This document shows positions 2,808-61,976 of a stretch of DNA of 64,000 nucleotides, piece by piece. Origin of the DNA: a virus. The position numbers and the translations under genes are program-made. The first letter of the stretch is position 1. The number at the start of each line of letters is the position of its first letter. Location of the stretch: IMG/VR virus record IMGVR_UViG_3300050144_000106. One strand, given 5' to 3'. The notes below the pieces were generated by a model. It had not been told where the DNA came from, did no database searches, and saw only the letters and a program-made list of their open reading frames with translations.

Positions 2808-4364
2808 ATGGATGTTCAAACCCTACTAAGCCGAGCCATCGAAAAGGGGTCAGCCCCTGATGTTGTGGCGCAGCTAATCGCCTACGCCGAGCGCCAGGCG
2901 GCGGCGCAAGCCAAGGAAGCGTTCGACAAAGCGTTCGCCGCCTTCCGCCAGTCCGTCACCGTTGCGGTCAAAAACGCAGCGTACGACGAGACCAGCCCCT
3001 GGAGCGGCAAACGGTTTGCCAACCTGGAAGGCGTGGTGTCGGCTGTGGCTGATCTGCTGAAAGCCCACGGCTTCGCCTACCGCTGGATTCCGCGCGTGGA
3101 GTCGCAATGGGTATCGATCACCTGCCGCCTAACCCACATTGGCGGACACAGCGAAGAGGCCCAAATGGGCTGCCCGCCGGATTGGTCGGAGGATCGCACC
3201 GAAGTCCAGGCCATTGCCGCAGCGGTCACGCAGCTGGAGCGCCACACGCTCAAAGCGGTATGCGGGATTGTGGACGGCAGCGGAACAGCGCCGGCGCAAA
3301 AGCGTGCCCCCGTGCTGGCCGCCCTGGGCGCACAAACATCAGTGCAATCCCTGGGCCGCGCGCTGTGCGCGCTGCCGCTGGAAGAGCGCCAGCGCTACCT
3401 GGCCGACTACATGCGGTTTCGCCGGGCTATCCCCACGCACGATGTGGCTGCCGAATTTAACGCCCGCCACGTTGGGCTGCTGGTGGACGACAACCCCCAA
3501 GGCTCACCCGGCTGGCATGCGGCGCGCTGCGGCGTTCTCACGGCTTCGCTGGTGGCCGATGCAGTGAGCCGCTGCCTGCGCGCATACGGGAAAAAGCAGG
3601 TGGGCGACTGGTCGGAGGCCAGTGACCGCCTGGCCGCCATCCTGGCTATCGAGAGCATCACCGGCAAACCGTACCGTGCAAACGGCAGCAGCGCCGCCAC
3701 CGAGGAGGGCCACGAACAAGAGCCGTTGGCTCGCATCGCCTATGAAGTGCAGACTGGCAACGTGGTGTTCGAGGCTGGCCTGGTGACGACCGACGACCGC
3801 GCGGTGGGCTACAGCACCGACGGCTGGACAAGCGATGCCAGCGGCCTGGGCCGCCTTGAGATCAAGACATTGGTCAGCCCTGCGCGCATCGCTGAATTCA
3901 TGAGCCAGTCCGACAAGCGCGCATGGGCAATTGCCGAGTTCGGCGTCCAGTGCAACACCGCGCTGTGGCTCACCACCGACGACTGGTGCGACTTGATTGT
4001 GTGGATCCCGGCTCTCGAGGCCACCGGTGGCCACTTCTGGATTTTCCGAATCGAGCGCGACGAAGACGCCCTGACTGACTTGGGCAATGAAATCAAAGAG
4101 TTCCTGAAGCGCAAGCGGGCATACGAAGAAATCTTTCGCCAGACCAAGAGCAACGCGCACTTCACCTGGGATGACTTCTCTTTCGAGGAGTTACCTCAGA
4201 TCGAAGTGGTGGGCACCGCCATAGCCGCCGACCTGCCCGCCGCGCCTACACCGCCAGCCACCGGCGCCCTGGCCGCCAGCCCCAAACCGGCCAAGCCCAG
4301 CAAGGCCGCCCCCGCACCCGCCCCGGCGCGTACCGCCGTCCACATCCCTGAATCCGTTTTCTGA
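2808..4364 (+). CDS. Fused ERF-family single-strand annealing protein + YqaJ/lambda-exo-type exonuclease (518 aa)
   Basis: ORF track gives 2595..4364, with the start set to ATG 2808. The N-half has an ERF-like motif: FANLEGVVSAVADLLKAHGFAYRW...ITCRLTHIGGHSEE. The C-half has YqaJ / PD-(D/E)xK motifs: GSPGWHAARCGVLTAS and DGW...GRLEIKT. One uninterrupted frame. Confidence 0.7.
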   Translation: MDVQTLLSRAIEKGSAPDVVAQLIAYAERQAAAQAKEAFDKAFAAFRQSVTVAVKNAAYDETSPWSGKRFANLEGVVSAVADLLKAHGFAYRWIPRVESQWVSITCRLTHIGGHSEEAQMGCPPDWSEDRTEVQAIAAAVTQLERHTLKAVCGIVDGSGTAPAQKRAPVLAALGAQTSVQSLGRALCALPLEERQRYLADYMRFRRAIPTHDVAAEFNARHVGLLVDDNPQGSPGWHAARCGVLTASLVADAVSRCLRAYGKKQVGDWSEASDRLAAILAIESITGKPYRANGSSAATEEGHEQEPLARIAYEVQTGNVVFEAGLVTTDDRAVGYSTDGWTSDASGLGRLEIKTLVSPARIAEFMSQSDKRAWAIAEFGVQCNTALWLTTDDWCDLIVWIPALEATGGHFWIFRIERDEDALTDLGNEIKEFLKRKRAYEEIFRQTKSNAHFTWDDFSFEELPQIEVVGTAIAADLPAAPTPPATGALAASPKPAKPSKAAPAPAPARTAVHIPESVF

Positions 4365-4379
4365 AGGAAGTCACTCACC

Positions 4380-5906
4380 ATGAGCACCCAAGCTACCGAA
4401 GCCATCGCTGAACAACCCCTTGAACTCCAACCCACTAAGGCTGCAAGCACAAGCGAGGTGATCGAGGCATCCGCCGCCGGCGGCGAACTGGCAGAGCTGT
4501 CCGCCATTGAAAAAGCTGTGACCAAGCTGTTTAACAGCGATGGCCGGGCCGAAAAGGCTCAAAAAACCTGTGATGCGGCCCTGGCCAAGCTCCCGGCCCT
4601 CGATTTGAAGACCAAGAAGGGATTGGACGAAGCTATCTCGCTCAAGACCAGCGTCCTCAAAGAGCGCACCGGGGCAGATAAAGATTCCAAGGCCATCAAG
4701 AAACGCCTAAGCGATCTTGGCAAAGCCATCGGTGCGGAGTCCGACAAGATTGCAGCCATCACCGAGCCGGTCGAGAAAAAACTCGAAACTGTCATCGAGG
4801 CCCGCAAAGTTGAACAAGCCGCTGAAAAAGCCGAAGCCGAGCGGATCAATCAAGAGCGCCTCTTGGCGCACCAAGCCAAGCTCGATCAACTGAGAGCCAT
4901 GCTGCCGGCGCAAGCGGTGGCACTGGCTGCCGGCCCGGAAAAGATCGCTCAGCAAATCGAGCGAGTGGAGTCGGTGCCTATCAGCCCTGAGCTGTGGGAG
5001 GAATTCGCTGTCTCCGCCCAGGTTGAGAAAACCCAAATCCTGGCGCACCTGCGTGCGTGGCATGACCTGGCGTTGGCCCAAGTGGCCCAAGAACGCCAGC
5101 GCATCCAAATGGAGCGCATGGGCCGCTTGACGGCGCTCAGTCAAATGGCGATGCAGGCGTTTGGCAAAACAGCGGCGGAGATTCGCACTGTGGCGCAAGA
5201 AGTCGAGGCCGCTGGCACGGAGGAAGCCGACTGGGGGGAGCTGCTGACGCAGGCCCAAATGGCCAAGACTCAAAGCCTGGGGATGCTGGGCCAGTTGTTG
5301 GCCCAGGCTGAAAAGGTCGAGGCCGCCAAAGCAGAGGCTGAGGCAGCTGCGGCCGCTGAAGCCGCCAAAGCAGTCGAGGAAGCTGCGGCCGCTGAGGCAG
5401 ACAAAGCAGCGGCTGAGAAGGCTGCGGCCGCTGAAGCCGCTGATGCCGCCCAGGTGGCCGAAGAGGCCAAAACAACAGCCGTGGCAACGACGCCAGAGAC
5501 TGCTACTGAAGCCGTGGCCGTGGTGTCGGCTCCCATGCTGATTGCTGCTGCACCGGCTCAAGAGCCTGCGATGGACGAAGCGCGCACTGCGCCTGTTGCT
5601 GAGCCGCTGACTACCGACCCTGCCACTGTTGTCCCTGCCTCTGCCTCCGCTGCTGATGAGTTCATCAAGCTGGGCGAGTTCAACCTCGCGCTTGCTGTGT
5701 GCTCTGTTGACGCTGAGCAGCTGGCCGCCCTGGGTTTTCAGCATCAAAGCGTGCCCGGCTTGAAGGGTAAGTGCTACCCCAAAGATCAGCGCGTGGCGAT
5801 GGCGCACGCCCTGATTAATGGCATCCACCGCGCTATTGCTCGGTGGGAACAAGGGGATGCTATCGGCACCTCGGGCACCTCGCGTCAGCACGACGTTCAC
5901 GCCTGA
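4380..5906 (+). CDS. Ala/Glu-rich coiled-coil protein (508 aa), function unknown
   Basis: Long ORF with GGAAG upstream and a helical low-complexity centre. The position next to the recombinase suggests a recombination or replication accessory role. Confidence 0.7.
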   Translation: MSTQATEAIAEQPLELQPTKAASTSEVIEASAAGGELAELSAIEKAVTKLFNSDGRAEKAQKTCDAALAKLPALDLKTKKGLDEAISLKTSVLKERTGADKDSKAIKKRLSDLGKAIGAESDKIAAITEPVEKKLETVIEARKVEQAAEKAEAERINQERLLAHQAKLDQLRAMLPAQAVALAAGPEKIAQQIERVESVPISPELWEEFAVSAQVEKTQILAHLRAWHDLALAQVAQERQRIQMERMGRLTALSQMAMQAFGKTAAEIRTVAQEVEAAGTEEADWGELLTQAQMAKTQSLGMLGQLLAQAEKVEAAKAEAEAAAAAEAAKAVEEAAAAEADKAAAEKAAAAEAADAAQVAEEAKTTAVATTPETATEAVAVVSAPMLIAAAPAQEPAMDEARTAPVAEPLTTDPATVVPASASAADEFIKLGEFNLALAVCSVDAEQLAALGFQHQSVPGLKGKCYPKDQRVAMAHALINGIHRAIARWEQGDAIGTSGTSRQHDVHA

Positions 5907-21706: not shown

Positions 21707-21768
21707 CGCCACCCACGCAAAAGCTCGCACGCAGCGAGCTTTTCTTGCCGCACCACGGAGATTCCGCA

Positions 21769-25028: not shown

Positions 25029-27494
25029 TTACAGGGAGCGCCACCCGATTCCCCCGGATGCAACGTGCGCAATACCCCTATCCGGCACGTTTTGCCCAAT
25101 CGGAGCGCTAGCGGGTGGCACCACGATGGTGGGCGCTGCCGTGCCGTTGATGCGCTGGGGCGTGGAGGCAGGCTCTTGAGGCGGGGGCACCGCCACCGCA
25201 GCCGCAGGACGAACCGCCGGAACACTCAGCGCCGGGATATTGGGGGTTGCCGGCGCTAACGGCGCGCTGGCACCAGTGGCGGCACCCACCTTCTTCAAAA
25301 GCACCGCCTGTTCTTGGATTGCTCTGCGGGCTGTAGAGGCCTGAATATTGGGAGGGGAGGAGCGGAATAACTCTGCGTTGTGGGTCAACTTGTAGTTTTG
25401 GACGGCGGTCACGATGTCCGCATCCGACATGCTGGGCAAGCTGCGGCCACTCAGCGCGTTTTTGATGAGCGCAAACGCCCCCTTAGCGTTATTTGGCCCA
25501 CCGGGGCCAAACTGCGTAGCGGTGGAAAACAGCATTTCCTGTACAGCTCTGCCGCGCCCGCTTAAATCCAGCCCTGCGGCCTTGAGCGCATCGCTGGCTG
25601 GGATGACGTTGTTTTTGCGCAGGAAATCGAGCTGGGCAAACTGAAAATCTGCTGGCTCGCGTGCTTGAACCTCCTGCCACTTCTTTTTGAAATCAGGCGT
25701 GCCAGGCTCCAGCCCTTTGAAATCTTGGCCGTATTTGGTTTTGGCCAAAAACGCTTTAAGCGTTCCGGTATTGGTTGACAGTTGGTACAGCCCGTAAGAG
25801 GGGCCGCCGGGGTCGCCTTTGTTATTGCCCACGGCGTTAGGGTTGCCGCCGCTTTCAAAAGTGGTGCTTACCGCGCTGCCAGGGGCGCCGGCAGCTTGCG
25901 CCGGAGATAGAGCGGCCACGGGCTTGGGTAGGCGTGGGTCGCGCTCATCACCGCCCACCAGGCGGCTGACCCATCCCGAAAACTGCCCCCAGGAGGATGC
26001 GGCGTCATCAGCGAACTCCCCGAGCTTGTCCCAGACGGTCAGCTTGCGGATGAAGTCGTATACCTTCATCATCGGCTCGCCTAGGAGCTTGCCGCCCTCG
26101 CCTCCCAGCCATGCGCCTATGACGGCGCCAATGGGGCCACCCAGCACCATCCCAAGCGAGCCACCGGCCAGCGAGCCGACGGCCCCGCTCAAATTCTCGG
26201 CTCGCGCTTTACGGCGCTCTTCATCCGTGAGGTTTGGGTCGTTTTGGATGTCGTTATCGCTCATCCATGCCGAAAGACCCGTTAGCGCCGTCCCAAGGAC
26301 TGGCAGGCGCCCCAAGAACTTCAAGGCAGATTTGCCGCCGCGCCCTAGCCACCCAAGAGCCTTGGCGGCCGCTTCTGCTGCGGCAGAGGCGGGCCGGCCT
26401 ACCCGTGACTTGGCCCACGCCCATGCGCCCGTTGCTGCTGCGCCTACGCGCTCGCCCATGCGGCCAAACCAGCCGCTAGCACTTTTGGCGCGCTGCCCAA
26501 TCGCGCTGGGCACCCCGTAACGATCCAGCAAGCGGGGAATGGCGCCTTGCCACAAGAACCGCTTGAGCATGGCGGGCAGCCCCGCCAACAGCAGCGGCAG
26601 CATGGACAGCAGCCCGCCGGACTTTTCTTTGCCCGCCGCTTTGGCGACATCGCGCAGCCCGCGCACTTGTTGATTGGACTGGGTCTTGGCATCGCGCCGG
26701 CTCAAGCCCAGCGTCTGGGCAATGCGCTTGAGCCACCCCGTTTGTTTTTGCTCCTGAGAGCCCCCTAGCCCAGTCAGTGCCCCAATGCCTTGCATTACTG
26801 GCGTGGCCACGTTCTTGACGGAGGTGGCCAGGTTGCGCATTTCCTCGGCTGCGGCCAGCGTGGGGTCAAGCCCCGCCGTTCCGCTCAGCGCTTGATCGGC
26901 CACTTCTCCGACGGCTCCACCAGCGGCACGGATTCGCCCGACTGCCCCGCCACTGTCTTGGCCCTCGCCACCTCCTTGGAAGCGCCCATTGCCATCGCGC
27001 ATCCGCTGCTCAGCTCGGTCTTCACGCCGGGCTTTTTGCTCATGCTCGGCCATGCTGGCTAGCGTGCGTGCCGTCTCTTGCGGCGCCTGGGCCGCCGCTT
27101 TGGCTGCGCTGGTTGTTTGGGGGGTGGCCGGCGCCGCAGTTGAGCGCACGAACCGCCCTCGGTCATCGCGGGGTCGCTCCAGAGCGCGCTGGGAAGCCGC
27201 TGCCGCCGCTGCTGGCGACGACGTAGCCCGGCTGGGCACGCTGGTGGGAGCTTGCCCCCGAAAAGCCTGCCGAATGGCTTTGGCAACTAGCTGAGTTTCC
27301 TTGCTTGCTAGCGCAGCAGGAACAGCCCGCGCCCGGCTTGTCACCACGGCCGCATGCTTGCGCATCATGGCCAGGATGTGGTGTGTGTCCTGCCTGACAG
27401 CGCCCAGCAGCCCCGCCATCTGCTGCTCATCACCCGCAGAGCGCAGCCCCAAGGGCGTGCCACCCGTCAAAAATCCTTGGTTGTCGCTTTGCAT
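25029..27494 (-). CDS. Tape-measure-like / ejection protein with C-terminal lysozyme-like (transglycosylase-type) domain (821 aa)
   Basis: RDDRGRF / RDGNGRF motifs and a Gly-zipper membrane segment GGSLGMVLGGPIGAVIGAWLGG. The stretch FESGGNPNAVGNNKGDPGGPSYGLYQLS resembles the E-S...G-L-x-Q transglycosylase motif. Confidence 0.55.
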   Translation of the reverse strand: MQSDNQGFLTGGTPLGLRSAGDEQQMAGLLGAVRQDTHHILAMMRKHAAVVTSRARAVPAALASKETQLVAKAIRQAFRGQAPTSVPSRATSSPAAAAAASQRALERPRDDRGRFVRSTAAPATPQTTSAAKAAAQAPQETARTLASMAEHEQKARREDRAEQRMRDGNGRFQGGGEGQDSGGAVGRIRAAGGAVGEVADQALSGTAGLDPTLAAAEEMRNLATSVKNVATPVMQGIGALTGLGGSQEQKQTGWLKRIAQTLGLSRRDAKTQSNQQVRGLRDVAKAAGKEKSGGLLSMLPLLLAGLPAMLKRFLWQGAIPRLLDRYGVPSAIGQRAKSASGWFGRMGERVGAAATGAWAWAKSRVGRPASAAAEAAAKALGWLGRGGKSALKFLGRLPVLGTALTGLSAWMSDNDIQNDPNLTDEERRKARAENLSGAVGSLAGGSLGMVLGGPIGAVIGAWLGGEGGKLLGEPMMKVYDFIRKLTVWDKLGEFADDAASSWGQFSGWVSRLVGGDERDPRLPKPVAALSPAQAAGAPGSAVSTTFESGGNPNAVGNNKGDPGGPSYGLYQLSTNTGTLKAFLAKTKYGQDFKGLEPGTPDFKKKWQEVQAREPADFQFAQLDFLRKNNVIPASDALKAAGLDLSGRGRAVQEMLFSTATQFGPGGPNNAKGAFALIKNALSGRSLPSMSDADIVTAVQNYKLTHNAELFRSSPPNIQASTARRAIQEQAVLLKKVGAATGASAPLAPATPNIPALSVPAVRPAAAVAVPPPQEPASTPQRINGTAAPTIVVPPASAPIGQNVPDRGIAHVASGGIGWRSL

Positions 27495-27495
27495 G

Positions 27496-28287
27496 TCACT
27501 TTGCCACCAGGTTTACCGGGTCAAACGTATTTGAGGGTTCGAAGGTCAAATTGACGGTTTGCAGCTGGTTTTCGCTGCGCGCGTACTCCTCTTCGCAAGA
27601 CGCAGCCGACACCAAAAACTCACGCGAAAACCCGTTAAGCAACTCGCCGTCGAGCGCTTTGGGGTCTCGCTTGAGTCGGGTCACGCGGATCAGCAGTAGG
27701 TAGTCCTTTGGGTAGCCGAACGTGCCGTCAGGGTGGGCCACCTGGTCGCACTTGCCTTCAAACCACTGCTGGAGGGTGCCGTCAGCATCATCCCGAGTTG
27801 TGATGCGGATGCTGGTGCCCTGGGCTACGCCACGGCGATCGATGGCGGCGCTGCCCACGGGGATGGTTTCGCCACTCAGCGTGCGCGACCCAAAGCTCAC
27901 GCTTTCGGCCAGCAACTCCAGCCGCTCGCCAGCCTGGGTGCTCAAAGCACCCTTGCCGGAGCGGGCTTCGGTGATCTCCACGCTCCACAAGTTGGCCCAG
28001 CTCAAGCTAAGGGCGCGCACCTGCTGGGTAAGTCGCTCGATCCTGCCGTAATGCACCTGGCGGATTACGCCCTTGTTTGTGAGCGCAGCAAGGCCGGGCA
28101 CCGGCTTAGGCGGCAGGCCGCCACCTCGATTGAGCAAAGCGTTGGCCACCGCGCCTGCTGCGCCCATGGCTCGCACAACATCAGCCCCAATGAACGGCGC
28201 GCTCAAAGCGGCGCGGGCTTTGTCAACCCTGGAAATGGCCTGTTCGTAAGCCGACAGCACGGAGCCGCTTACCGGTGGCAGGCTCAC
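27496..28287 (-). CDS. Hypothetical virion protein (263 aa)
   Basis: 4-nt overlap with the portal gene. Confidence 0.45.
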   Translation of the reverse strand: MSLPPVSGSVLSAYEQAISRVDKARAALSAPFIGADVVRAMGAAGAVANALLNRGGGLPPKPVPGLAALTNKGVIRQVHYGRIERLTQQVRALSLSWANLWSVEITEARSGKGALSTQAGERLELLAESVSFGSRTLSGETIPVGSAAIDRRGVAQGTSIRITTRDDADGTLQQWFEGKCDQVAHPDGTFGYPKDYLLLIRVTRLKRDPKALDGELLNGFSREFLVSAASCEEEYARSENQLQTVNLTFEPSNTFDPVNLVAK

Positions 28288-31263: not shown

Positions 31264-34200
31264 TCAATTCTTGGCAACAGCCAGCGGTGGGCTGACCTTC
31301 ATGGTCAGGGATCGCGCAGCCCGTGGGTAGGCTGCGATCAAGCGCTTCCACACCCGAAGCGGTACCTCCCAAGCGTTCAGCTCTCTCTTCCACTTGGCGA
31401 CATCGCCTGCGGCTTTAGCTGACGCCTTGATTTGATCTTTCCACGTAAAGGTCTCGCCGCCAATCAGCACCAGGTCGTTGTCGCCTGGCTCGCGCTGTTT
31501 CGTGGCTGGCGCCACGCCTGCCGCTTCGGTGGCCTTTGGGGCCTCCAGCGCTTTGATGGCATTGGCATAAATCGCAACGCTGCCTGGGGATGCAATTTGC
31601 AGCAGACTTGCCGCACCCCCCTGACTGTAGTCCGGATCAGTTGTGAGGTCATACCCAGCAAATGCCTGCTGCACCCACTGATCCAAAGCTTGATCTATTT
31701 CTTGCTGCGTGCTCAGATCTTTGAGGCTGTCTTCTAGCCGGGCACCTTGATGCGTGGCAAGAAGAACAGCCCTACTAGGCCAGGTGTGGCGATCCACCAC
31801 AGCCTTGGCATCGCTCCACGTCAATTTCAGGCCACGGGCCGCCGCAAACGCCAACATGCTGCTGAGTGAAATGCTGTATTGCATGCGCCCAGCTGGCCGG
31901 CGCAGCACGCCGGCGCTGGCCGGCGCGGTGAACATCACGCCGGCGCCGTAGTCGCCATCGCGCACGTCCGACACGATGGCGGCCTGCTGCTCCACGATAG
32001 CGCGCACCACCCGCGTGCCCTCCACAGCCTTGGCTGGATCAATCACATCGGGGAAGAGCGGGGATGGCAGCATGTAGTCGCGCAAGGTGTAGCGCAAGGC
32101 CACCGGCTTGGCGCAGCGCTCCCCCACCTCGGGCAACAGGGCGCTATAGAGATCGGGCTGGTGCTCAGGCTTGACGGCGGAAAGCCGTTCCTCCACCTGC
32201 GCCGCAGTGCTCAGGCAGGCGTCGTAGCCAGGCATGCCGGGCAACACCAACTCGCCGCCGCCGCTCATGGCGTCGGCCACCGACACGGTAATTGGCGCCC
32301 CTTGCTCCAGCACCCAGCCCACGGCCACCAGCGCATCGCCGCGCGTGGATTTGCGCACAAGGTAAAGCGGATTGCCGTCCTTGCGGATGAAGGCGCCGGT
32401 ACACACCGGCTTGCCATCCACCATAGCAGCCTCGCCGGTTTCCAGCTTGTCGGCCAGCACCGCCGGCATGCCCCCGGCTTCGCTCGCCAAGCGCTTGAAG
32501 TTGACCTTGGACTCCTCCACCATGCTGCGCGCCAAGTCCACCTCGGACTGCCAGTCTTGCTGGAGGATCGAGCCGTCGCTCACTTCAATGGCGAACATCG
32601 GGTAAGTCGCCCCCGTCAGGCTCTTAAACATCTCTTCTTCGAGCTTTTCGCCGCGCTTGAGTGAGCGCTGCACCTCCTGGGTGACTTGCGCCAGCGTGAC
32701 CACTTGGCCGTCATCCCTGCCGCCGTTTTTGCGCTTGATCGTGCCGGAGGTCTCAAGGTCGCGCTTCAGGCCGATCAAGCGGGCATCGATGTCGGCCTTG
32801 GTGGCTTGGTTGCGCAGCACCGACGAAGCGCTGGCCCTGGGGTTGTTGATGCGCTCTTGCAGAAGGCTCGACTGCGCCAACAACACCGCACAAGCGCAGG
32901 CCTTGCGGGCATACCAATGAGCCGGCGTGGCGTTGCCAGCCAGAAACGCCAGTTGCTTGGCTGCCGTGGCCAGGTTGACGGCTTGCTTGTTGCGCGTGCC
33001 CACGGCGCGCTTTTGCTCCTCCAGAGCGGTGGCCCGCTGCTGCATTTTGGTCATGGCGTCAGCGTCGCCCACCGAATCAATCAGGGCCTCCAACTGCTCG
33101 CGGGTCAGACCTGACTGAATGGCCACGTTGTCGCTGCCATCCTTGGCCATCAGGCTGTCGATCCAGCCGGCCTTGTTGCTCACCAGTTGGCGCTTGTAGC
33201 TGTCGAAGGTGCCGTCCGCGTCGTAGTGGTAGACGCGCACCATCTCGGTTTCGTTGCCCTGGCGCACGCCCCGGCCGTCGCGCTGGGTCAGGCTGTCGGG
33301 CGTCCAGCCGGTGGTGAGGTGGTGAATGGCCTGCGTGCCCTTTTGCAGGTTCAGCCCCACCTCGCCCTTCTCGTTCATGATGACCACGCGGTACTTATTG
33401 CCTTCCCCGTCCGCGTTGAATCCATCCTGCACCGCCAGGATTTCCTCGGGCTTGCCATTTACCTTGCCGGTGATGATGGCGATGGCCCCGGTCGGCACCC
33501 CGCAGCGCTTGATAAGCAAACGCCGGAGCTTGTTGTGGATGGCTAGGGTGTCGCAGAAGATGAGCTGGCGCACGCGCTGGGTTCGCTGCCCATTGATGAC
33601 CCCGCGCGGGTGAGCCTCCTCGTTTTGAAAGTTCTCCAGCAGCGCCGCCAGCTTTGGTGGCACGCTCACATCCAAATCCACGCCAGCCTTCTCCGCCATG
33701 GTCTCGAAGGCGGTCTGGGTCTGGGCGTCCATGCTGTCCAAGCACAGCCGCCCGTCATCCAACACCCGCGCCAAAGCTTTGATCCTTACCAGCGTCACAT
33801 CGCTGTCGCCATCGCGGATGGTTTTGGTGCCCACCACGGCGCCGGCCAGCGTCATTGGCCCAGGGCGCGAGCGCTCTTCCACCGGCGCCTTGGTCTCCCA
33901 GCGTGCCACCAGGTCGGCCACCTGCACCTGCTGGACGGCGGAAACCCGGTAGAACGTGGCCCGGTCGTCTAGCTCCGGGTCGGCAATCAGCGCCGCCATC
34001 TTGTTGATGAGGTTGAACGGGTGGCCAATCAGCTCCATCGGCTCGCCGAACTTTTCGGCCACGCGGTCATAGGCATCCTTGCTGCCGCCCACGGTTTTCT
34101 TTTCCATCAAGGTATCGATGGCAAAGCGGAAAGCGCCCTTGTAGTCTTGCAGGGTGGCTTTCACGCTTTCGGGCAAGTCCACGGCCACCGACGCCCGCCC

Positions 34201-37200
34201 CGCATCGGGCGCGACGATTTGCTCGCCCACTTCCTCGGCCGTCTTAATGGTGCAGCTCTGCTGAATGATGCGACGCAAAGCCTTGGCGTTGTTCAGCCCG
34301 ACGAACACGTCATAGGACTTGATCTGCCCGTCGAGCGTTTCCTCGTCGCGGTTTTCCATCGCGCAGGTCAGCTCCATGAACTGGTCGGAGCCTTCCACCA
34401 TCATCAAGTCGTTCACCCGCTGGTCACCCATCGTCAGCGAGAGCATGGAGTACACCTCCAGCGGGCTGTTGGTGATTGGGGTGGCTGAGAGGCCCATCAC
34501 GCCATCGTTGCGCACGTTGCCCTTGCGCACGAACCAGGCCTTAGCCTGGGCATCCAAGCCACGGCCCGAGGGGTCAGCCAGGCTCAGGAACTTGCCGCCC
34601 TTGAAGTCGTTGACCTTGCGGCTGTTCTTGAAAGCGTGCGCCTCATCGATGACCAGGGAATCAATGCCTAGGTCTTCGAAGAACGGCGCGGCCGCGCTCT
34701 TGGTCTTGTCCTGGGTAAGCTGGAAGATCAGGGCTTCGCGCAGGCTCTTGGCGCGCTCGTTGTCCTTGTTCTTGTCGGACTCGGCATAAGCCTTGTCCAC
34801 TTTGGCCAGGTGCTTGTCGTACTCGGCGGCCGTGGCGTCCTTAAGACGTAGGCGCTGGAAAGCCTCGAAGGTTAGGAAAATCTTGCTGTGGCGGTTCTCC
34901 AGGATGCGGTTCAGGTCGCGGTCGTAGTCTGAAGAGCTGACGCTGAATGAGCCGTCGGCTTTCACGGTCAAGCCCACAAACAGACAGTCCTCCGTGGAGG
35001 CGTAGACCTTGGCTGCCTCCTTGCGCCAGTTGGAAAGCACCGAGTTCGGCACCACGAACGCGGTTTTCTTCTTCGTGCCGATGGCCTGGGCGTACTGCAC
35101 CGCCACCAGGGAGGTGCTTGTCTTGCCTAAGCCCACGCCAAAGCCGTTGATGCCGCTGAACTCGCGTGCGGTCTTGCGCACGTAGGCGCACTGGAACCCT
35201 TTTACGCCCCAATCGGGATTGAGGCCGGGCACAGCCAGGGGGCTTTCGTCGTCAGCTTGCTCGAAGTAGAGCCGCTCGGGATCGTTGGCCAAGGCTTCGA
35301 GCTTGCCCATCACCACCGGGTTGGCGCGCACCCAGCCGCCGAAAGCCTGCTCCGCCTCGTTAATCATGCGGCGCAGCTCTTCAAGCGCCTTCTTGTTGTC
35401 GCTGAACTCCGCCCCGCGCAGCGAGACCGTGCGCTTGCGCATGTACTCGCCCAAACGCTTGAGCAACTTTTCATGCTCGTTCTTGGGCGTCTTGATGTCG
35501 CAGGCGATGTAGGGCGTGCCGTCCTGCTCGTCGTAGGCCACAACAAAGCGTGGATCGATGAAGCGCCGGACGAACTCGGCCTTTTGCTCCAGCGGCACCA
35601 AAGGCGATGCCAGGTTGAAGCTCATACTGGCGGGATCAAGCCGGCTCACACGCTGCTCGGCCACCAGCTTCTGGCGCACCAGCTTGTCGCGCACCGCATC
35701 GCTCTTGGCGGCGGCGATGTCGCCATCGATGCGCCGCGAGAAGTCGCCGTAGTTGCCCACGTAGTAGTCAGCCGCCCGGCACACGCTGGCGCCGTCGCTG
35801 GAAACGCACCAGTCGTCGCTGGCATGCGGGTTGAATGCCTCGCCCAGCACGCCCTTGGCGTCGCCCAGACTCACCCAGGCGCTGCCGCCTCCGGCGTTGT
35901 AGCGCAGAGCCTCAAAGCGTTGATCCGGTGTGCGCTCGTCGGGCTTGTCCTGGGGCAGCACATCCCCGCGCCACACAGCAGAGTAGCCGCCGGCACGGGT
36001 GTAGTGGATGCCAATCTTGGCCATGGCGGTCTTCAGCCGGCGATTGAACGTGGCAGGCACCTCGCGCGCGGCGCCGGCGTAGCGCTTCATCGCCTCCGAC
36101 AGCTCTGGGTACTCCTCAAGGTAGTTCACCGGCCCGTCCTCAGCTTGGGCTTCGTGCATCACGTCGTCCATCGCCAAGCCCACGGCCGCCGCACTCCAAA
36201 GCCCATCTTGCTGCGCCGCCGGCGCACCGGCCACGCTACTCAAGGTCGAGCGCAGCCAGCCGGGCGCATCAAAGCCCCGGCCGCTGGCCTGCATTTGCTC
36301 CAGCACCTGGGCAGCAGCCGGGTACTCCACCTTGGCCAACACCGCCCGCAGCGGCGTGGATAGCGTGCCCAGCACCTCCTCGAAACGCGCGCTTTGATCC
36401 GATTCGCTGGGTAGTGCCACCCATGCGCCGCCCTTCATCACCAGGGTTTGCCCTGCGTGGCGCACTGTGTCGCCCTCGTTGTAAATGATGGGCTGGGTTT
36501 CGGTCGCATCCAGCAGCGCCCACTCCACCCGGCTGGGCGGGAACTTGCGCAACAGCTTGGCAATGTCGGCCACGCTGCCGGTGTTGATGACGCGATCCAC
36601 GTCGCGCAGCTTGTTAGGGTCTTTGGCGACAAACTCGCCCAGCACATGCTTGGCACCCTCAGACGTCTTGAAGTAGTTGCCGCCGATGAACTCATCCCAC
36701 AGCACCTTGGCCTGGGTCAGCACGCCAGGGTTTTGCTCGCGCAGCTCGGCCACCTTGTCCAGCACCTCGCGGCTGTACTTGCGCAGCACGATCACGTCGG
36801 TGATGGTGTCCGCCTGGGCTGTGCCAAACACGCTGTTAGGCAGGCGGTAGGCGCCCACGAACTCAGCCATGTAGCTCAGCCGCTGCCGCAGGCTTTCTTC
36901 TTTGCCGTCCTTGCCAGAGACGCAACGCGGCGGCGTGATGAACGCCGCCAGGCCACCTGGGCGCAGCTTCTCCAAGCTGCGCAGGACGAAGTAGTTTTGG
37001 ATCGGCTCGCGGCGGTACTTGGTGTCCTTGAGCTGGTTGCCGCCCCGGTCAGCCACCTCGCCGAACGGCACGTTGGTGACTACCGCGTCATAGACCTCGT
37101 CCGGGGTGGCCGCCGCCACCGCTTCGAAGGCGCTTACCGTGGTTGCGTAGCCCGGCCCGTTGTTCACCAGCGCGTTGATGCGCCCGCTGGTGGCGTTCAG

Positions 37201-37863
37201 CTCCACCGCGTCCACGGCGGCATTGGCCGGCGCGGTGGCGCCAAAAACCCCCACGCCAGCCGCAGGATCAAGCACGCGCCCACCGGCAAAGCCAAGCTCG
37301 CCCAGCAAGTCCCACACGCCCGATGCCACGGGCTTGGGCGTGTAGTACTCGTAAGCGCTGCCCTTCTTGCCGTCCGCACCCTCCAAGTTGCCACCGGTAC
37401 CGCTGTACTTGGCCAGAATGGCTTTCTGGGCGCCATCCAAGGCTGACGGGTTGACCTCGCCGGCATCTATCTGGCGCAGCAAGGCCAAGGCGGCCGTGTT
37501 GTCGCGCTTGCGCTGAGCCAGCTTGCGGCTGGGGTCAAACTCGTAGAGGTGGCCTTGGGGTGTGCGCACCGCCGGCGCGGGGCTGTCTGGGGTCGGGTCG
37601 GCCACCTGCGCCGGTGGCGGCGCCTCAGCACCGGCCGCCTTAGCTTGGCCAAGTAGCAGCGTGCGCAGCTCAGCCAGCCGGCGCCCCAGCGTAAGGCGCT
37701 CCCTCAAGCTGGGTTTAGCGGCCAAACTTTGGCGAACGCTGGCCAGTTCTTTGCCAAGCCGAATGCGCTGTAAGAGCGGGAGTTTGACGGCCGCAACGGC
37801 GGCATCCACTTTGTCAAACAGGGTACGACGACGGGCCAGCAATGCGGCGTAAACAGTGCTCAT
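31264..37863 (-). CDS. Giant N6-adenine methyltransferase + SNF2-type helicase protein (2199 aa), P1 DarB-like
   Basis: Methylase motifs are VLDPAAGVGVFG and VVTNVPFGE. Helicase motifs are GFGVGLGKTSTSL, LVIDEAHAFKN, GLSATPITNSPLE and QRDGRGVRQGN. A long C-terminal extension has no recognisable domain. Confidence 0.8.
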   Translation of the reverse strand: MSTVYAALLARRRTLFDKVDAAVAAVKLPLLQRIRLGKELASVRQSLAAKPSLRERLTLGRRLAELRTLLLGQAKAAGAEAPPPAQVADPTPDSPAPAVRTPQGHLYEFDPSRKLAQRKRDNTAALALLRQIDAGEVNPSALDGAQKAILAKYSGTGGNLEGADGKKGSAYEYYTPKPVASGVWDLLGELGFAGGRVLDPAAGVGVFGATAPANAAVDAVELNATSGRINALVNNGPGYATTVSAFEAVAAATPDEVYDAVVTNVPFGEVADRGGNQLKDTKYRREPIQNYFVLRSLEKLRPGGLAAFITPPRCVSGKDGKEESLRQRLSYMAEFVGAYRLPNSVFGTAQADTITDVIVLRKYSREVLDKVAELREQNPGVLTQAKVLWDEFIGGNYFKTSEGAKHVLGEFVAKDPNKLRDVDRVINTGSVADIAKLLRKFPPSRVEWALLDATETQPIIYNEGDTVRHAGQTLVMKGGAWVALPSESDQSARFEEVLGTLSTPLRAVLAKVEYPAAAQVLEQMQASGRGFDAPGWLRSTLSSVAGAPAAQQDGLWSAAAVGLAMDDVMHEAQAEDGPVNYLEEYPELSEAMKRYAGAAREVPATFNRRLKTAMAKIGIHYTRAGGYSAVWRGDVLPQDKPDERTPDQRFEALRYNAGGGSAWVSLGDAKGVLGEAFNPHASDDWCVSSDGASVCRAADYYVGNYGDFSRRIDGDIAAAKSDAVRDKLVRQKLVAEQRVSRLDPASMSFNLASPLVPLEQKAEFVRRFIDPRFVVAYDEQDGTPYIACDIKTPKNEHEKLLKRLGEYMRKRTVSLRGAEFSDNKKALEELRRMINEAEQAFGGWVRANPVVMGKLEALANDPERLYFEQADDESPLAVPGLNPDWGVKGFQCAYVRKTAREFSGINGFGVGLGKTSTSLVAVQYAQAIGTKKKTAFVVPNSVLSNWRKEAAKVYASTEDCLFVGLTVKADGSFSVSSSDYDRDLNRILENRHSKIFLTFEAFQRLRLKDATAAEYDKHLAKVDKAYAESDKNKDNERAKSLREALIFQLTQDKTKSAAAPFFEDLGIDSLVIDEAHAFKNSRKVNDFKGGKFLSLADPSGRGLDAQAKAWFVRKGNVRNDGVMGLSATPITNSPLEVYSMLSLTMGDQRVNDLMMVEGSDQFMELTCAMENRDEETLDGQIKSYDVFVGLNNAKALRRIIQQSCTIKTAEEVGEQIVAPDAGRASVAVDLPESVKATLQDYKGAFRFAIDTLMEKKTVGGSKDAYDRVAEKFGEPMELIGHPFNLINKMAALIADPELDDRATFYRVSAVQQVQVADLVARWETKAPVEERSRPGPMTLAGAVVGTKTIRDGDSDVTLVRIKALARVLDDGRLCLDSMDAQTQTAFETMAEKAGVDLDVSVPPKLAALLENFQNEEAHPRGVINGQRTQRVRQLIFCDTLAIHNKLRRLLIKRCGVPTGAIAIITGKVNGKPEEILAVQDGFNADGEGNKYRVVIMNEKGEVGLNLQKGTQAIHHLTTGWTPDSLTQRDGRGVRQGNETEMVRVYHYDADGTFDSYKRQLVSNKAGWIDSLMAKDGSDNVAIQSGLTREQLEALIDSVGDADAMTKMQQRATALEEQKRAVGTRNKQAVNLATAAKQLAFLAGNATPAHWYARKACACAVLLAQSSLLQERINNPRASASSVLRNQATKADIDARLIGLKRDLETSGTIKRKNGGRDDGQVVTLAQVTQEVQRSLKRGEKLEEEMFKSLTGATYPMFAIEVSDGSILQQDWQSEVDLARSMVEESKVNFKRLASEAGGMPAVLADKLETGEAAMVDGKPVCTGAFIRKDGNPLYLVRKSTRGDALVAVGWVLEQGAPITVSVADAMSGGGELVLPGMPGYDACLSTAAQVEERLSAVKPEHQPDLYSALLPEVGERCAKPVALRYTLRDYMLPSPLFPDVIDPAKAVEGTRVVRAIVEQQAAIVSDVRDGDYGAGVMFTAPASAGVLRRPAGRMQYSISLSSMLAFAAARGLKLTWSDAKAVVDRHTWPSRAVLLATHQGARLEDSLKDLSTQQEIDQALDQWVQQAFAGYDLTTDPDYSQGGAASLLQIASPGSVAIYANAIKALEAPKATEAAGVAPATKQREPGDNDLVLIGGETFTWKDQIKASAKAAGDVAKWKRELNAWEVPLRVWKRLIAAYPRAARSLTMKVSPPLAVAKN

Positions 37864-39575: not shown

Positions 39576-43451
<3,876 letters not shown>

Positions 43452-43516
43452 GGGGCGCCTGGGGCAGAGTTACCGCGTAGCAAGCGGGCAATGCGGGCCT
43501 AATGCTTTGACTTTTG

Positions 43517-43985
43517 AAGCTCGCCTTTTTGGGGGAGCTTTTAGCACCGAGAAGGCTCGCCGGATGAGCCGCAGCGTGCGCAGCGCGGGCAAGCATGGCG
43601 ATGCGCTTCGCGGCATCTAAGGTCAGCAGGCATTCGATGCGTGCCTGACCCGTTGCTGAAAGCTCCCCTTTTTGGGGGAGCTTCAAAAAGTCGAGGCCTT
43701 CGGTCAGCATCGCCCGCTTCACCTGGGCTTTGATCCAGTCGGAGAAGTCCTTGCGCACCCCTAGGCCGGCGTGCGGCTTGGATGCCAACACGGCGCACCT
43801 GTTTTTTACTCCCCCAAAAAAGGGAGCAAAAAGCTCCCTCATTCTTTGGGTGGTCTTCAAAAATGGCGAGGTGCTTCGCAGCGCCTAGGATCAACAGGTT
43901 CTCACGGCGGTTATGCCTGCCGCGCTCTGTTCTTTGCTCGCCTTTTTGGGCGAGCAAAGGGTTCTCGCCTTTTTGGGCGAGAACC
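43517..43985. repeat. Cluster of five palindromic hairpins with T5 (A5) loops
   Basis: The five hairpins are 43517-43540, 43660-43683, 43821-43839 (inverted polarity), 43932-43959 and 43960-43985. The shared core is CTCSCC-TTTTT-GGSGAG with 7-11 bp stems. Confidence 0.85.
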
Positions 43986-44050
43986 ACAAAATCGAAGCCT
44001 TTGGCCAGCATCGCCAGCACATCGCCAGTCCTCCAGCGGATGCGGCGCAT
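43861..44050 (-). pseudogene. Truncated or frameshifted second AntA-like copy
   Basis: ...FDFVVLAQKGENPLLAQKGEQ...RRENLLILGAAKHLAI has the C-half of an AntA-like domain with a duplicated LAQKGE. Its frame runs on over the next gene (track ORF 43541..44050) without a domain-like continuation. Confidence 0.35.
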
Positions 44051-44063
44051 ACCCAGCTTGACT

Positions 44064-44648
44064 TCAAACCCCGTCTAGAAACTGCGCCACCGCCGGAATG
44101 TGGGTCAGGTTGCCTGCTGCCTCCAACACCAGCTTGGGCACGAAGGGCGGCAGCATCAGTGTGTTGACCTTGTCTTGCACGAAGTAGGTCAGCACCACGC
44201 CTAAACCGGGGAACACCATCACCATGTCCCCCTTGCCTACCTCGAAGTAGCCCGCCTCATCTGGCCCCGCCAAAGGCTCGATGCGAGCCTCCACCAGCTG
44301 GGGCGCATCGGCGCCTTGGCCGTTGTCAAACATCGACGCACCTTGGTAGGGCTGCAAAATTTGCAGCTTGCCGTGGAACGCATCATCCGGGCCAACGGGC
44401 TGGTAATCCATGTCAGCCTCTTCGTCGTCGGCCAGCACCGGGATACCGCCGAGCATGGGCTGGCCACCAAAGCTCTCGCCTGCGCCGCCCAGCACATCCG
44501 TAGTGCTGGTTTCATCCATGCGCAAAAACACCTTGCGCCACACCTGGCAATCCAGGCTCGCCGGGTGGTTGAGTGTGACCATGCGGGCGGATTTGGCCAG
44601 TGCCTCGGGCACGCCGGTTAGCGAAGAGGTGATGAGCGGCAGAGGCAT
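44064..44648 (-). CDS. Hypothetical virion protein (194 aa)
   Basis: ORF on the late strand with an acidic middle. Confidence 0.5.
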   Translation of the reverse strand: MPLPLITSSLTGVPEALAKSARMVTLNHPASLDCQVWRKVFLRMDETSTTDVLGGAGESFGGQPMLGGIPVLADDEEADMDYQPVGPDDAFHGKLQILQPYQGASMFDNGQGADAPQLVEARIEPLAGPDEAGYFEVGKGDMVMVFPGLGVVLTYFVQDKVNTLMLPPFVPKLVLEAAGNLTHIPAVAQFLDGV

Positions 44649-46171: not shown

Positions 46172-46831
46172 TTATTCACCGCCAGGTGGCTGACTACCAA
46201 AGAAAAAGAGGCCCGAAAACAAACCCCTGCCCGCCACGATGTTGTGGTGGTGCGAGCGGCTCACACCACCGGTGCCGCCGGCGCCGTTGCGCGCGAAGAC
46301 GGTTTCCTGTCCGCGCATGGATTGCGCCACCAGCTGCTGGCCAGCTTGCGCCACATGCTCCGCCTCCAGCAGGCGCCGACTCAGCCAGCACAGAGCCAGG
46401 ATGGCGGCGTGAGCATTCTCAGCGCCGGGGTTCAGCCGAATCTTGGGCTTGCCGTTGTCATCCATCCCGTCAAAAGCGACGGCGGATTCCATTTGCCAGC
46501 GCTGGGCGCCCTTGTCTAGCACCAGCAAGCCCTGGGATTGCATCGAGCGCATCTCCATCACGGCGTCGATGATTTCTGCGAATGAGAACAGCCCATCAAA
46601 GTCTTCGGCCCGCCAGTTGTCGGTGACAAAGGCGGCCGGCCCGGCCTTGGTGGTGTTGCGCTGGTGTAGCGGCTTAGGCGTGGAGCCGGTGATGATGAGC
46701 GTGCCGGTGACGAGGTGCAATGCCCCGACGATGGTGACTGGCGCGCCCCCAAAGGTCAACATCGTGGCCTGCATGGCCTGCATGGCCTGCATGGCCTGCA
46801 TGGCCTGCATGGCCTGCATTGGCTGCGTCAT
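46172..46831 (-). CDS. Hypothetical virion protein (219 aa) with N-terminal (MQA)6 repeat
   Basis: ATGA overlap with the upstream gene. The repeat was read directly from the sequence. Confidence 0.55.
   Translation of the reverse strand: MTQPMQAMQAMQAMQAMQAMQATMLTFGGAPVTIVGALHLVTGTLIITGSTPKPLHQRNTTKAGPAAFVTDNWRAEDFDGLFSFAEIIDAVMEMRSMQSQGLLVLDKGAQRWQMESAVAFDGMDDNGKPKIRLNPGAENAHAAILALCWLSRRLLEAEHVAQAGQQLVAQSMRGQETVFARNGAGGTGGVSRSHHHNIVAGRGLFSGLFFFGSQPPGGE
46765..46827. repeat. 9-bp tandem repeat TGGCCTGCA x6 plus one degenerate copy
   Basis: Read directly. It is in frame and encodes MQAMQAMQAMQAMQAMQA at the N-terminus of 46172..46831. Confidence 0.95.
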
Positions 46832-61748: not shown

Positions 61749-61976
61749 TCACTCAGACGCCCCGACGGTTCCAGCCGTCGGGGCGTTTTCTTTTAGGCGT
61801 CGAAACTCTTCGCGGCCATCGCCAAAGCATTTACGTTCGTCGTCTTGCGCTTTTTCAATCAAGCGCAAAAGCCAACTGTTTACGCTCATGCGCTCTTTCT
61901 TGGCTTGGGATCGAACCCACGCTTTGATGTCTGGCGGCATGCGCAGACCAAAGGGGGTGATTGGTTTGTTGCTCAT
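61749..61976 (-). CDS. Arc/MetJ-type ribbon-helix-helix repressor (75 aa)
   Basis: PFGLRMPPDIKAWVRSQAKKERMSVNSWLLRLIEKA. It lies immediately upstream of ant. Confidence 0.7.
   Translation of the reverse strand: MSNKPITPFGLRMPPDIKAWVRSQAKKERMSVNSWLLRLIEKAQDDERKCFGDGREEFRRLKENAPTAGTVGASE

Follow-up and report, generated by a model that had tools for sequence, protein, structure and literature searches.

Five short palindromic hairpins stand close together at positions 43517-43985 of a 64,000-nucleotide (nt) stretch of viral DNA, the IMG/VR record IMGVR_UViG_3300050144_000106 (over its full length called the window below), directly upstream of genes for giant proteins, and the question raised by this locus is what such a cluster is for. 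A reading made from the sequence alone, here the sequence-only reading, had proposed a protein-binding array or an RNA signal serving the giant-protein operon, a replication or recombination hotspot, or a small mobile repeat that had invaded an antA gene. All five hairpins are indeed present in the window sequence as they had been described, and every one of them lies in antA-derived sequence, the remnants of one minus-strand antA gene. We consider it probable that they are copies of an ancestral antA palindrome, multiplied by duplication, truncation and partial inversion at the palindrome and kept as a DNA-level repeat by template switching, with no role for the giant genes.

Palindromes in a scrambled antA locus

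The hairpins have a core in common, as had been claimed, although its correct form is CTCSCCTTTTTGGGSGAG (CTCSCC-T5-GGGSGAG), with one more G than in the pattern first given. With at most one mismatch, this 18-nt core is found five times in the 64 kb, at 43520, 43663, 43937 and 43964 on the plus strand and at 43809 on the minus strand, against a chance expectation of 0.28, and five matches were reached in 0 of 100 shuffles. No further match exists in the rest of the window with up to three mismatches allowed, which is the reverse of a genome-wide repetitive extragenic palindromic (REP) element lacking local enrichment. Hairpins 2, 4 and 5 rank among the five strongest perfect hairpins of the window. 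The palindromes and the antA pieces around them are the following (aa, amino acids; ORF, open reading frame).

Palindrome 1, 43517..43540, minus strand: stem of 9 bp containing a single G/G mismatch; downstream of the AntA domain and out of frame with it
Palindrome 2, 43660..43683, minus strand: AAGCTCCCC-caaaaa-GGGGAGCTT, perfect 9-bp stem; ancestral position of the element
Palindrome 3, 43804..43841, no strand assigned: three-arm composite located at the called antA gene's 5' end
Palindrome 4, 43932..43959, minus strand: CTTTGCTCGCC-caaaaa-GGCGAGCAAAG, perfect 11-bp stem; reads LLAQKGEQR
Palindrome 5, 43960..43985, minus strand: GGTTCTCGCC-caaaaa-GGCGAGAACC, perfect 10-bp stem; in antA fragment B; reads VVLAQKGENP
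antA copy A, 43414..43860, minus strand: 148-aa ORF (called gene 142 aa, starting at 43842), overlapping the beginning of the 1291-aa gene
antA fragment B, 43862..44050, minus strand: N-terminally truncated; runs into copy A out of frame; missed by the gene caller
Inverted fragment of the antA N-terminal half (...KRAM...), 43481..43515, plus strand: adjoins palindrome 1; reverse complement of 43686-43719

The region concerned (43414-44063, minus strand) is framed by a 194-aa ORF (44648..44064) and a 1291-aa ORF (43451..39576). Copy A belongs to the antA gene family by a match to the whole domain, aligning with the Pfam AntA profile PF08346 over positions 3-67 of 68 (E=2.7e-14, 53.9 bits, cut-off 27), and its homologues carry the PF08346 annotation. 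Its AntA domain is complete; the N-terminal strand has been replaced, the conserved RRYFIE helix has been lost via gaps and there is an internal deletion, and an intact full-length gene comprising N-terminal strand, RRYFIE helix and C-terminal effector part is not found at the window locus. Fragment B has a Gly in place of the near-invariant Asp of the LDAAK motif, and the inverted fragment is complementary to 43686-43719 at 79% over 34 nt. When the locus is compared by blastn with L057, an intact homologous antA gene encoding the protein P0003, it resolves into separate pieces.

Fragment B, 44017-43967: L057 858-908, 86%
Fragment B, 43980-43862: L057 922-1040, 90%
Copy A, N-terminal half, 43795-43664: L057 779-910, 86%
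Copy A, C-terminal half, 43640-43567: L057 994-1075, 77%, with gaps
Copy A past the internal deletion, 43584-43552: L057 1208-1240, 85%
43493-43481: L057 868-856, reverse strand, 13/13 nt

In the same comparison, palindrome 1 is identical to the L057 palindrome (948-967) at 19/20 nt, palindrome 3 matches the reverse strand of that palindrome (972-945) at 24/28 nt, and palindrome 5 with its upstream flank matches L057 at 86%. Measured against L057, the antA locus of the window is thus made of two direct fragments, two inverted pieces and one 27-nt in-frame duplication, with the breakpoints at the palindromes, an arrangement that the earlier suggestion of a recombination hotspot fits. The spacings between palindromes (143, 274 and 27 nt) follow the antA homology.

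Palindrome 2 encodes K-L-P-Q-K-G-E-L, the wing loop of copy A, and its DNA folds at -9.7 kcal/mol, and palindrome 4 is an in-frame 27-nt tandem duplicate of the palindrome 5 unit (start-to-start spacing 27 nt), the tandem pair folding as single-stranded DNA at -24.9 kcal/mol on the minus and -26.0 kcal/mol on the plus strand (z ~ -9). The peptide L-(A/P)-Q-K-G-E is read on the minus strand at hairpins 2, 4 and 5, in two different frames, in agreement with the sequence-only reading, which had also seen correctly that one hairpin falls in a different frame and that one antA copy is truncated or out of frame. The former is palindrome 1, whose translation is SSPKKASF when read with the antA ORF and KLPQKGEL in a different frame, where a stop codon immediately precedes it; the latter is fragment B. 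Hairpin 3 had been given as AGGGAGC-aaaaa-GCTCCCT at 43821-43839, and this structure is real, whereas the family member is the inverted copy that overlaps it at 43809-43826, of opposite polarity and with one mismatch to the core, the two together forming the composite. A terminator-like match at this composite is not above chance. The contigs L010 and L011 carry the antA protein of the window and are identical here, providing no comparative signal, and no match was obtained when the region was searched by blastn against GenBank phages. Independent in-frame duplications of the 27-nt palindrome unit are present in other antA genes, with three copies in L057/P0003 (L057 895-975) and two in L009 (~1860-1913, VVLSNAQKGGSSLLPQKGEQ), so that expansion of the unit is recurrent.

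A palindrome conserved across the antA family

To place these copies in the context of the family, antA homologue DNA was taken from viral contigs, isolate and metagenome-assembled genomes, metagenomes and GenBank phages, as 180-nt segments anchored on LDAAK, 176 of them unique, reduced to 130 non-redundant ones by a ceiling of 75% amino-acid identity, with a GC content at the locus of 23-66%. A hairpin with a score of at least 6 (7-14 bp) is present at the same site in 95/130 non-redundant homologues, and in 86/130 the top-scoring hairpin of the entire 180-nt segment lies within the same positional bins. The palindrome is found in 933W L0142 (CTATTTCCC-agaaac-GGGAAATAG), ul36 ORF238, A118 gp42, Klebsiella MEW1, Bordetella IFTN3 (with a stem of 12 bp) and S. 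thermophilus Abc2. Stem sequences vary widely, for example TTCCCGCTCCCC-cgtttt-GGGGAGCGGGAA, AGAGGTTTCTCTCA-aaaa-TGAGAAAAACCTCT, GGTTTTCGATA-aacc-TATTGAAAACC and CTATTCGATA-aatt-TATCGAATAG, with a family consensus of GTTTTCCCC-AAAAAA-GGGGAAAAC. The dyad centre lies mostly at a codon boundary, the spacer is AT-rich and 4 or 6 nt long, and pairing exceeds 0.8 over about nine positions and is ~0.3 just beyond the arms. As both arms are translated, the encoded peptide is antisense-symmetric (with a pattern such as E-V-F-x...x-E-N-L), GAG/CTC giving Glu/Leu, GTT/AAC Val/Asn and TTC/GAA Phe/Glu. L-[PA]-Q-K-G-E is conserved among the protein homologues, one of which holds the unit in triplicate. In an AlphaFold model of modest quality (predicted local distance difference test score 62), the peptide K54-L61 spans the last part of a strand and the first part of the loop in a strand-loop-strand 'wing' that precedes the conserved LDAAK helix, a location that is only rough, this region being of lower confidence in the model. 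The wing loop tolerates change, homologues having 9-aa tandem insertions in it. A Foldseek search with the model returned only matches with E>0.1, and no solved AntA structure was found.

Could the palindrome be a product of the protein that it encodes? In a shuffle test, synonymous codons were resampled with the protein sequence and the codon usage of each locus kept. The summed hairpin score of the 130 native sequences is 980.5, compared with 617.1 (standard deviation, sd, 12.9) after shuffling (z=28.1), and 77/130 sequences pass p<=0.05 on their own; for two control regions in these genes z was 3.0 and 2.1, and 10 and 4 sequences, respectively, reached significance. A fixed-column dyad profile over all 130 sequences produced a non-covarying peak at 156.5 that stems from the invariant LDAAK codons, and, given this confounding and the dilution of the profile by insertions and deletions, it was replaced for the study of covariation by a set of 57 sequences selected by protein-motif spacing only, with hairpin presence ignored, on which a fixed nine-pair structure was imposed. 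In this set 80% of the cells are paired (60% in the control), 100 cells are changed on both sides compared with 32 (sd 7) in shuffles (0/500 of which were as high), the covariation score is 0.519 compared with 0.205 shuffled and at most 0.19 slid, and double-sided changes occur in 9/9 pairs. Because the synonymous shuffles and the covariation are both this clear, the complementarity itself is maintained and, as the sequence-only reading had supposed, is not a by-product of coding; relatives that keep the peptide and lose the palindrome, which would have refuted that reading, are the opposite of what is seen, relatives changing the peptide and keeping the palindrome.

The possibility that the hairpins are a small mobile palindromic repeat that invaded antA, whether a REP element, a miniature inverted-repeat transposable element (MITE) or something similar to a Rickettsia palindromic element (RPE), agrees with a unit that is translated in frame and is found in tandem and in both orientations. 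RPE and REP elements (the latter also as bacterial interspersed mosaic elements, BIMEs) are dispersed, multi-copy and present in many unrelated loci. The antA palindrome resembles an RPE as palindromic DNA that is read in frame and adds a surface peptide, and it is unlike RPE and REP in being specific to one family, confined to a single site and only 22-30 bp long. It keeps a fixed codon boundary across the antA family, the many scattered copies of a dispersed repeat are not seen, and no copies exist outside antA in the window, in ul36 or in IFTN3. Exact matches to the 18-mer in 2.9 million viral contigs number nine, and 6/9 lie within AntA-like ORFs. An invasion by a mobile repeat, one of the options first put forward, is for these reasons highly implausible.

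No description of a palindrome in antA or in antirepressor genes was found in open-access papers and bioRxiv, an earlier description outside that scope being possible. Inverted repeats maintained by template switching are a known kind of phenomenon, as are cis-sites that lie within coding DNA; what was not found in this literature is a palindrome that keeps to a single codon boundary throughout a widespread family of phage genes and forces an antisense-symmetric peptide.

Maintenance at the DNA level

If complementarity is maintained, the next question is in which molecule it matters. There are 85 in-stem mismatches among 1049 Watson-Crick pairs, of which 14 are G:T and 20 A:C, and in the unbiased set the two kinds number 28 and 24 (p=0.68). 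As G:T and A:C are equally frequent, wobble pairs are tolerated on neither strand, and the signal is at the DNA level. This bears directly on the idea of a hairpin acting as RNA, within the antA message or an antisense transcript, be it a site for RNase III or other processing, a translational brake or an attenuator, and serving in this phage to process or antiterminate the long late transcript. Such a role would account for stable covarying stems, for copies that all precede the giant genes on the strand that is transcribed, and for the A-rich spacer of the sense strand (361 A and 138 T), but the last follows from the Lys, Gln and Asn codons of a turn in the protein, the spacers occur in both orientations, and the mismatches lack an excess of G:U-compatible pairs on either strand. 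The palindromes are GC-containing stem-loops of a size similar to Rho-independent terminators, from which they differ by their position inside an ORF, by the lack of a U-tract and by the lack of G:U tolerance; terminator-like sites number 2, with 1.4 expected, and promoter and terminator scans gave nothing above chance. A search of Rfam at permissive E-values returned nothing below E=0.97, all hits being far under the gathering scores and including a CRISPR (clustered regularly interspaced short palindromic repeats) repeat model at E=8.6, and the palindrome falls into no curated family of structured RNAs. We therefore regard an RNA function, the antitermination or processing signal of the sequence-only reading included, as improbable. 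A CRISPR-repeat mimic, a LexA box and a CRP box were also considered as identities for the palindrome and were dropped, the arms being too variable and the position being set by the reading frame.

Footprints of a different process are visible between related genes. The segments L174 and L179/L181 have identical 10-bp arms (0/20 differences) around exactly reverse-complemented spacers, caaatt and aatttg, and L174 and L179 are only 79% identical elsewhere (21% divergence over the whole segment); other reverse-complement spacer pairs include aaaacg/cgtttt and aaattc/gaattt. Among relatives that are at least 80% identical in the flanks, double compensatory changes (6) were found to be no rarer than single-arm changes (4), the doubles including transversions of C:G to G:C, and in pairs at least 80% identical the arms diverge by 3.8% and the flanks by 9.2%. 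Homogenised arms and a spacer inverted between unchanged arms are both documented signatures of replication template switching at short inverted repeats (PMC8604942, PMC8794818).

Template switching would then be the mechanism that both maintains and multiplies the element. On this explanation all five hairpins descend from one ancestral element, a DNA palindrome whose arms measure ~8-12 bp and flank an AT-rich spacer of 4 or 6 nt. Its centre falls at a codon boundary within the wing-loop region of antA, it has been passed down with the antA (PF08346) family in phages of Gram-negative and Gram-positive hosts, and it behaves at the DNA level as an inverted repeat prone to form structure. At replication the arms may pair within one strand, whereupon the polymerase would switch template and one arm would be copied from the other, giving rise to apparently 'compensatory' changes, double transversions among them. 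The same switching would flip the spacer and would now and then duplicate 27 nt in frame or leave an inverted partial copy. In the window phage, an antA gene placed in a variable slot between tail genes and polyvalent anti-restriction genes would have been duplicated, truncated and partly inverted at its palindrome, leaving five copies. Quasi-palindromes have reportedly been studied as template-switch systems in earlier work by Ripley and by Lovett. The antA palindrome is like such systems in that its arms are kept complementary by concerted multi-base changes, in the exact spacer inversions between identical arms, in the runs of amino-acid replacements in coding DNA and in the duplication and inversion junctions at the repeat. 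It is unlike the scattered, lineage-specific cases of PMC8604942 and PMC8794818 in being retained at one codon boundary across a deeply diverged gene family, and selection may be needed as well.

Several points weigh against this explanation. Template switching is read here from sequence footprints and not from direct observation; the 6 double-change cases among close relatives amount to about three independent events; and the comparison sequences are phylogenetically related, so that the z-scores overstate independence. Retention in ~73% of lineages over saturated synonymous divergence may exceed what mutation alone could deliver, and an added selective, functional constraint may be needed. 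Moreover, palindromes are not generated freely elsewhere, because the antA palindrome is the strongest perfect hairpin of the whole ul36 genome and ties for the strongest in that of IFTN3.

A rival view is that the palindrome is a selected cis-acting DNA element, for example a dyad site for a dimeric protein (e.g., the N-domain of AntA itself, with autoregulation by roadblock) or a cruciform that limits expression of the antirepressor. Template switching would in that case merely be the route by which compensatory changes arise, and the proposal is compatible with the local rearrangement and differs from our explanation on persistence only. It would account for retention at one site in those 95 homologues despite saturated divergence and for arms that evolve more slowly than their flanks, and a single-copy palindrome that is the strongest, or tied for the strongest, in whole phage genomes is what would be expected for action on its own gene. 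Palindromes in the degenerate antA fragments of the window are still perfect, their flanks being 10-23% off the intact homologue, and the symmetric mismatch statistics fit double-stranded DNA or a cruciform. However, the arms of this candidate element differ widely even among fairly close relatives, which argues against a conserved sequence-specific binder, and a conserved Gly codon together with a hydrophobic residue accounts for the conserved C4/G4' and T8/A8'. About 27% of lineages have lost the element, and no second copies that would indicate a regulon exist in the window, in ul36 or in IFTN3, searches of the complete ul36 and IFTN3 genomes for second copies of the arm having given only chance-level matches with one or two mismatches. 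A selected cis-element is in our judgement possible, though less likely than not.

A precedent for such a site is the origin of lambda, where four conserved direct iterons and an AT-rich region lie inside gene O and the binding protein is known; AntA is not known as an initiator. As in gene O, dyad DNA within antA codes for a linker or loop that tolerates change, in a DNA-binding protein, and tandem copies occur in some alleles (three in L057, two in the window). Unlike the iterons, the antA palindrome varies in sequence and stands alone in most genes of the family, and the gene itself is accessory; the at least three to four conserved direct repeats with an AT-rich region in an essential replication gene, as at a lambda-type origin, are not found here.

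Neighbouring genes and significance

Could the palindromes nevertheless serve the genes beside them? The upstream neighbours in the window are tail and baseplate genes, and downstream are genes for two polyvalent anti-restriction proteins.

39576-43451, minus strand: 1291-aa product with InPase, DarA_N and ddrB-ParB domains, which point to a polyvalent anti-restriction-type protein
31264-37863, minus strand: 2199-aa product whose Pfam matches, to Eco57I-methylase and SNF2-related families, are weak (at or close to the cut-offs) and would suit a DarB-like protein

The ParB-like domain that had been noticed in the next gene is thus real, and clustered palindromes directly upstream of a ddrB-ParB-domain gene are what would be expected of a protein-binding array for adjacent genes, whether for packaging (pac), for a centromere-like function or for binding of the ParB-superfamily domain. 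Yet every copy lies inside antA-derived sequence, the layout follows antA homology and not a regular spacing, and neither regular identical sites nor an association with a partner gene in relatives, as expected of a parS/centromere or pac array, was found; the terminase gene is ~9 kb distant. The palindrome is single-copy in antA genes of phages with unrelated architecture and travels with antA through differing contexts, being beside attR in 933W and beside cI/cro in ul36. The sole relative found that shares the order of tail and polyvalent-protein genes (360-aa, 194-aa and polyvalent protein), L236 (IMGVR_UViG_3300037462_000184), has neither an antA match nor a family palindrome in the slot between the 194-aa and polyvalent genes (3552-4928), which is filled by ~1.4 kb of unrelated sequence with opposite-strand ORFs. 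From this comparison the slot looks like a variable, moron-type insertion point, and the element would have no role for the neighbouring giant genes, although the test of the operon link rests on one distant relative of the window phage, a further point that counts against our explanation. The array is largely refuted and has in our estimate hardly any chance of being right.

Some other features deserve mention in their own right.

21719-21743 and 61757-61786: perfect hairpins with 10-bp and 12-bp stems, each followed by a T-run, which look like genuine Rho-independent terminators; the second is the strongest hairpin of the window, and the arm AAGCTCGC of the first recurs in the antA palindromes, which is probably coincidental
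41454-41498: a perfect (Ala-Pro)7 linker, APAPAPAPAPAPAPA, between domains of the 1291-aa protein; the other frames read RS/GS repeats
46766-46819: six 9-nt units in tandem, encoding MQAMQAMQAMQAMQAMQA, at the N-terminal end of a 219-aa ORF (46831..46172, a PHROG of unknown function), which could be a slippage-prone tract
27145-27166 and 28145-28174 of IFTN3 (L235): palindromes ~1 kb apart with the common arm CCCGCATC...GATGCGGG, flanking a Rha-family antirepressor gene next to antA; they may be operators or terminators of that locus

For annotation, the lesson of this locus is that clustered palindromes can be the wreckage of one gene and not a regulatory array. Beyond the window, antA genes are annotated as antirepressors in many temperate phages, Shiga-toxin phages included, and the palindrome inside them is often the strongest hairpin of the genome. 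It is conceivable, if doubtful, that hundreds of phages, among them the Shiga-toxin phage 933W, the lactococcal phage ul36 and the Listeria phage A118, carry it as a functional cis-element that throttles or autoregulates the antirepressor gene or marks a recombination boundary. In that event it would be a new cis-element controlling a gene annotated in the lysis-lysogeny switch, and its dyad symmetry would dictate the amino acids of the wing loop, DNA structure constraining the protein and not the reverse. If, on the other hand, the palindrome is maintained by mutation only, it would be a natural case of template switching of unusual clarity and depth, in which the process preserves an inverted repeat and makes 'compensatory' substitutions without selection. 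Template switching would then shape a protein loop and seed gene rearrangements in these phages, and the antA family would stand as a warning for covariation-based discovery of RNAs in coding regions.

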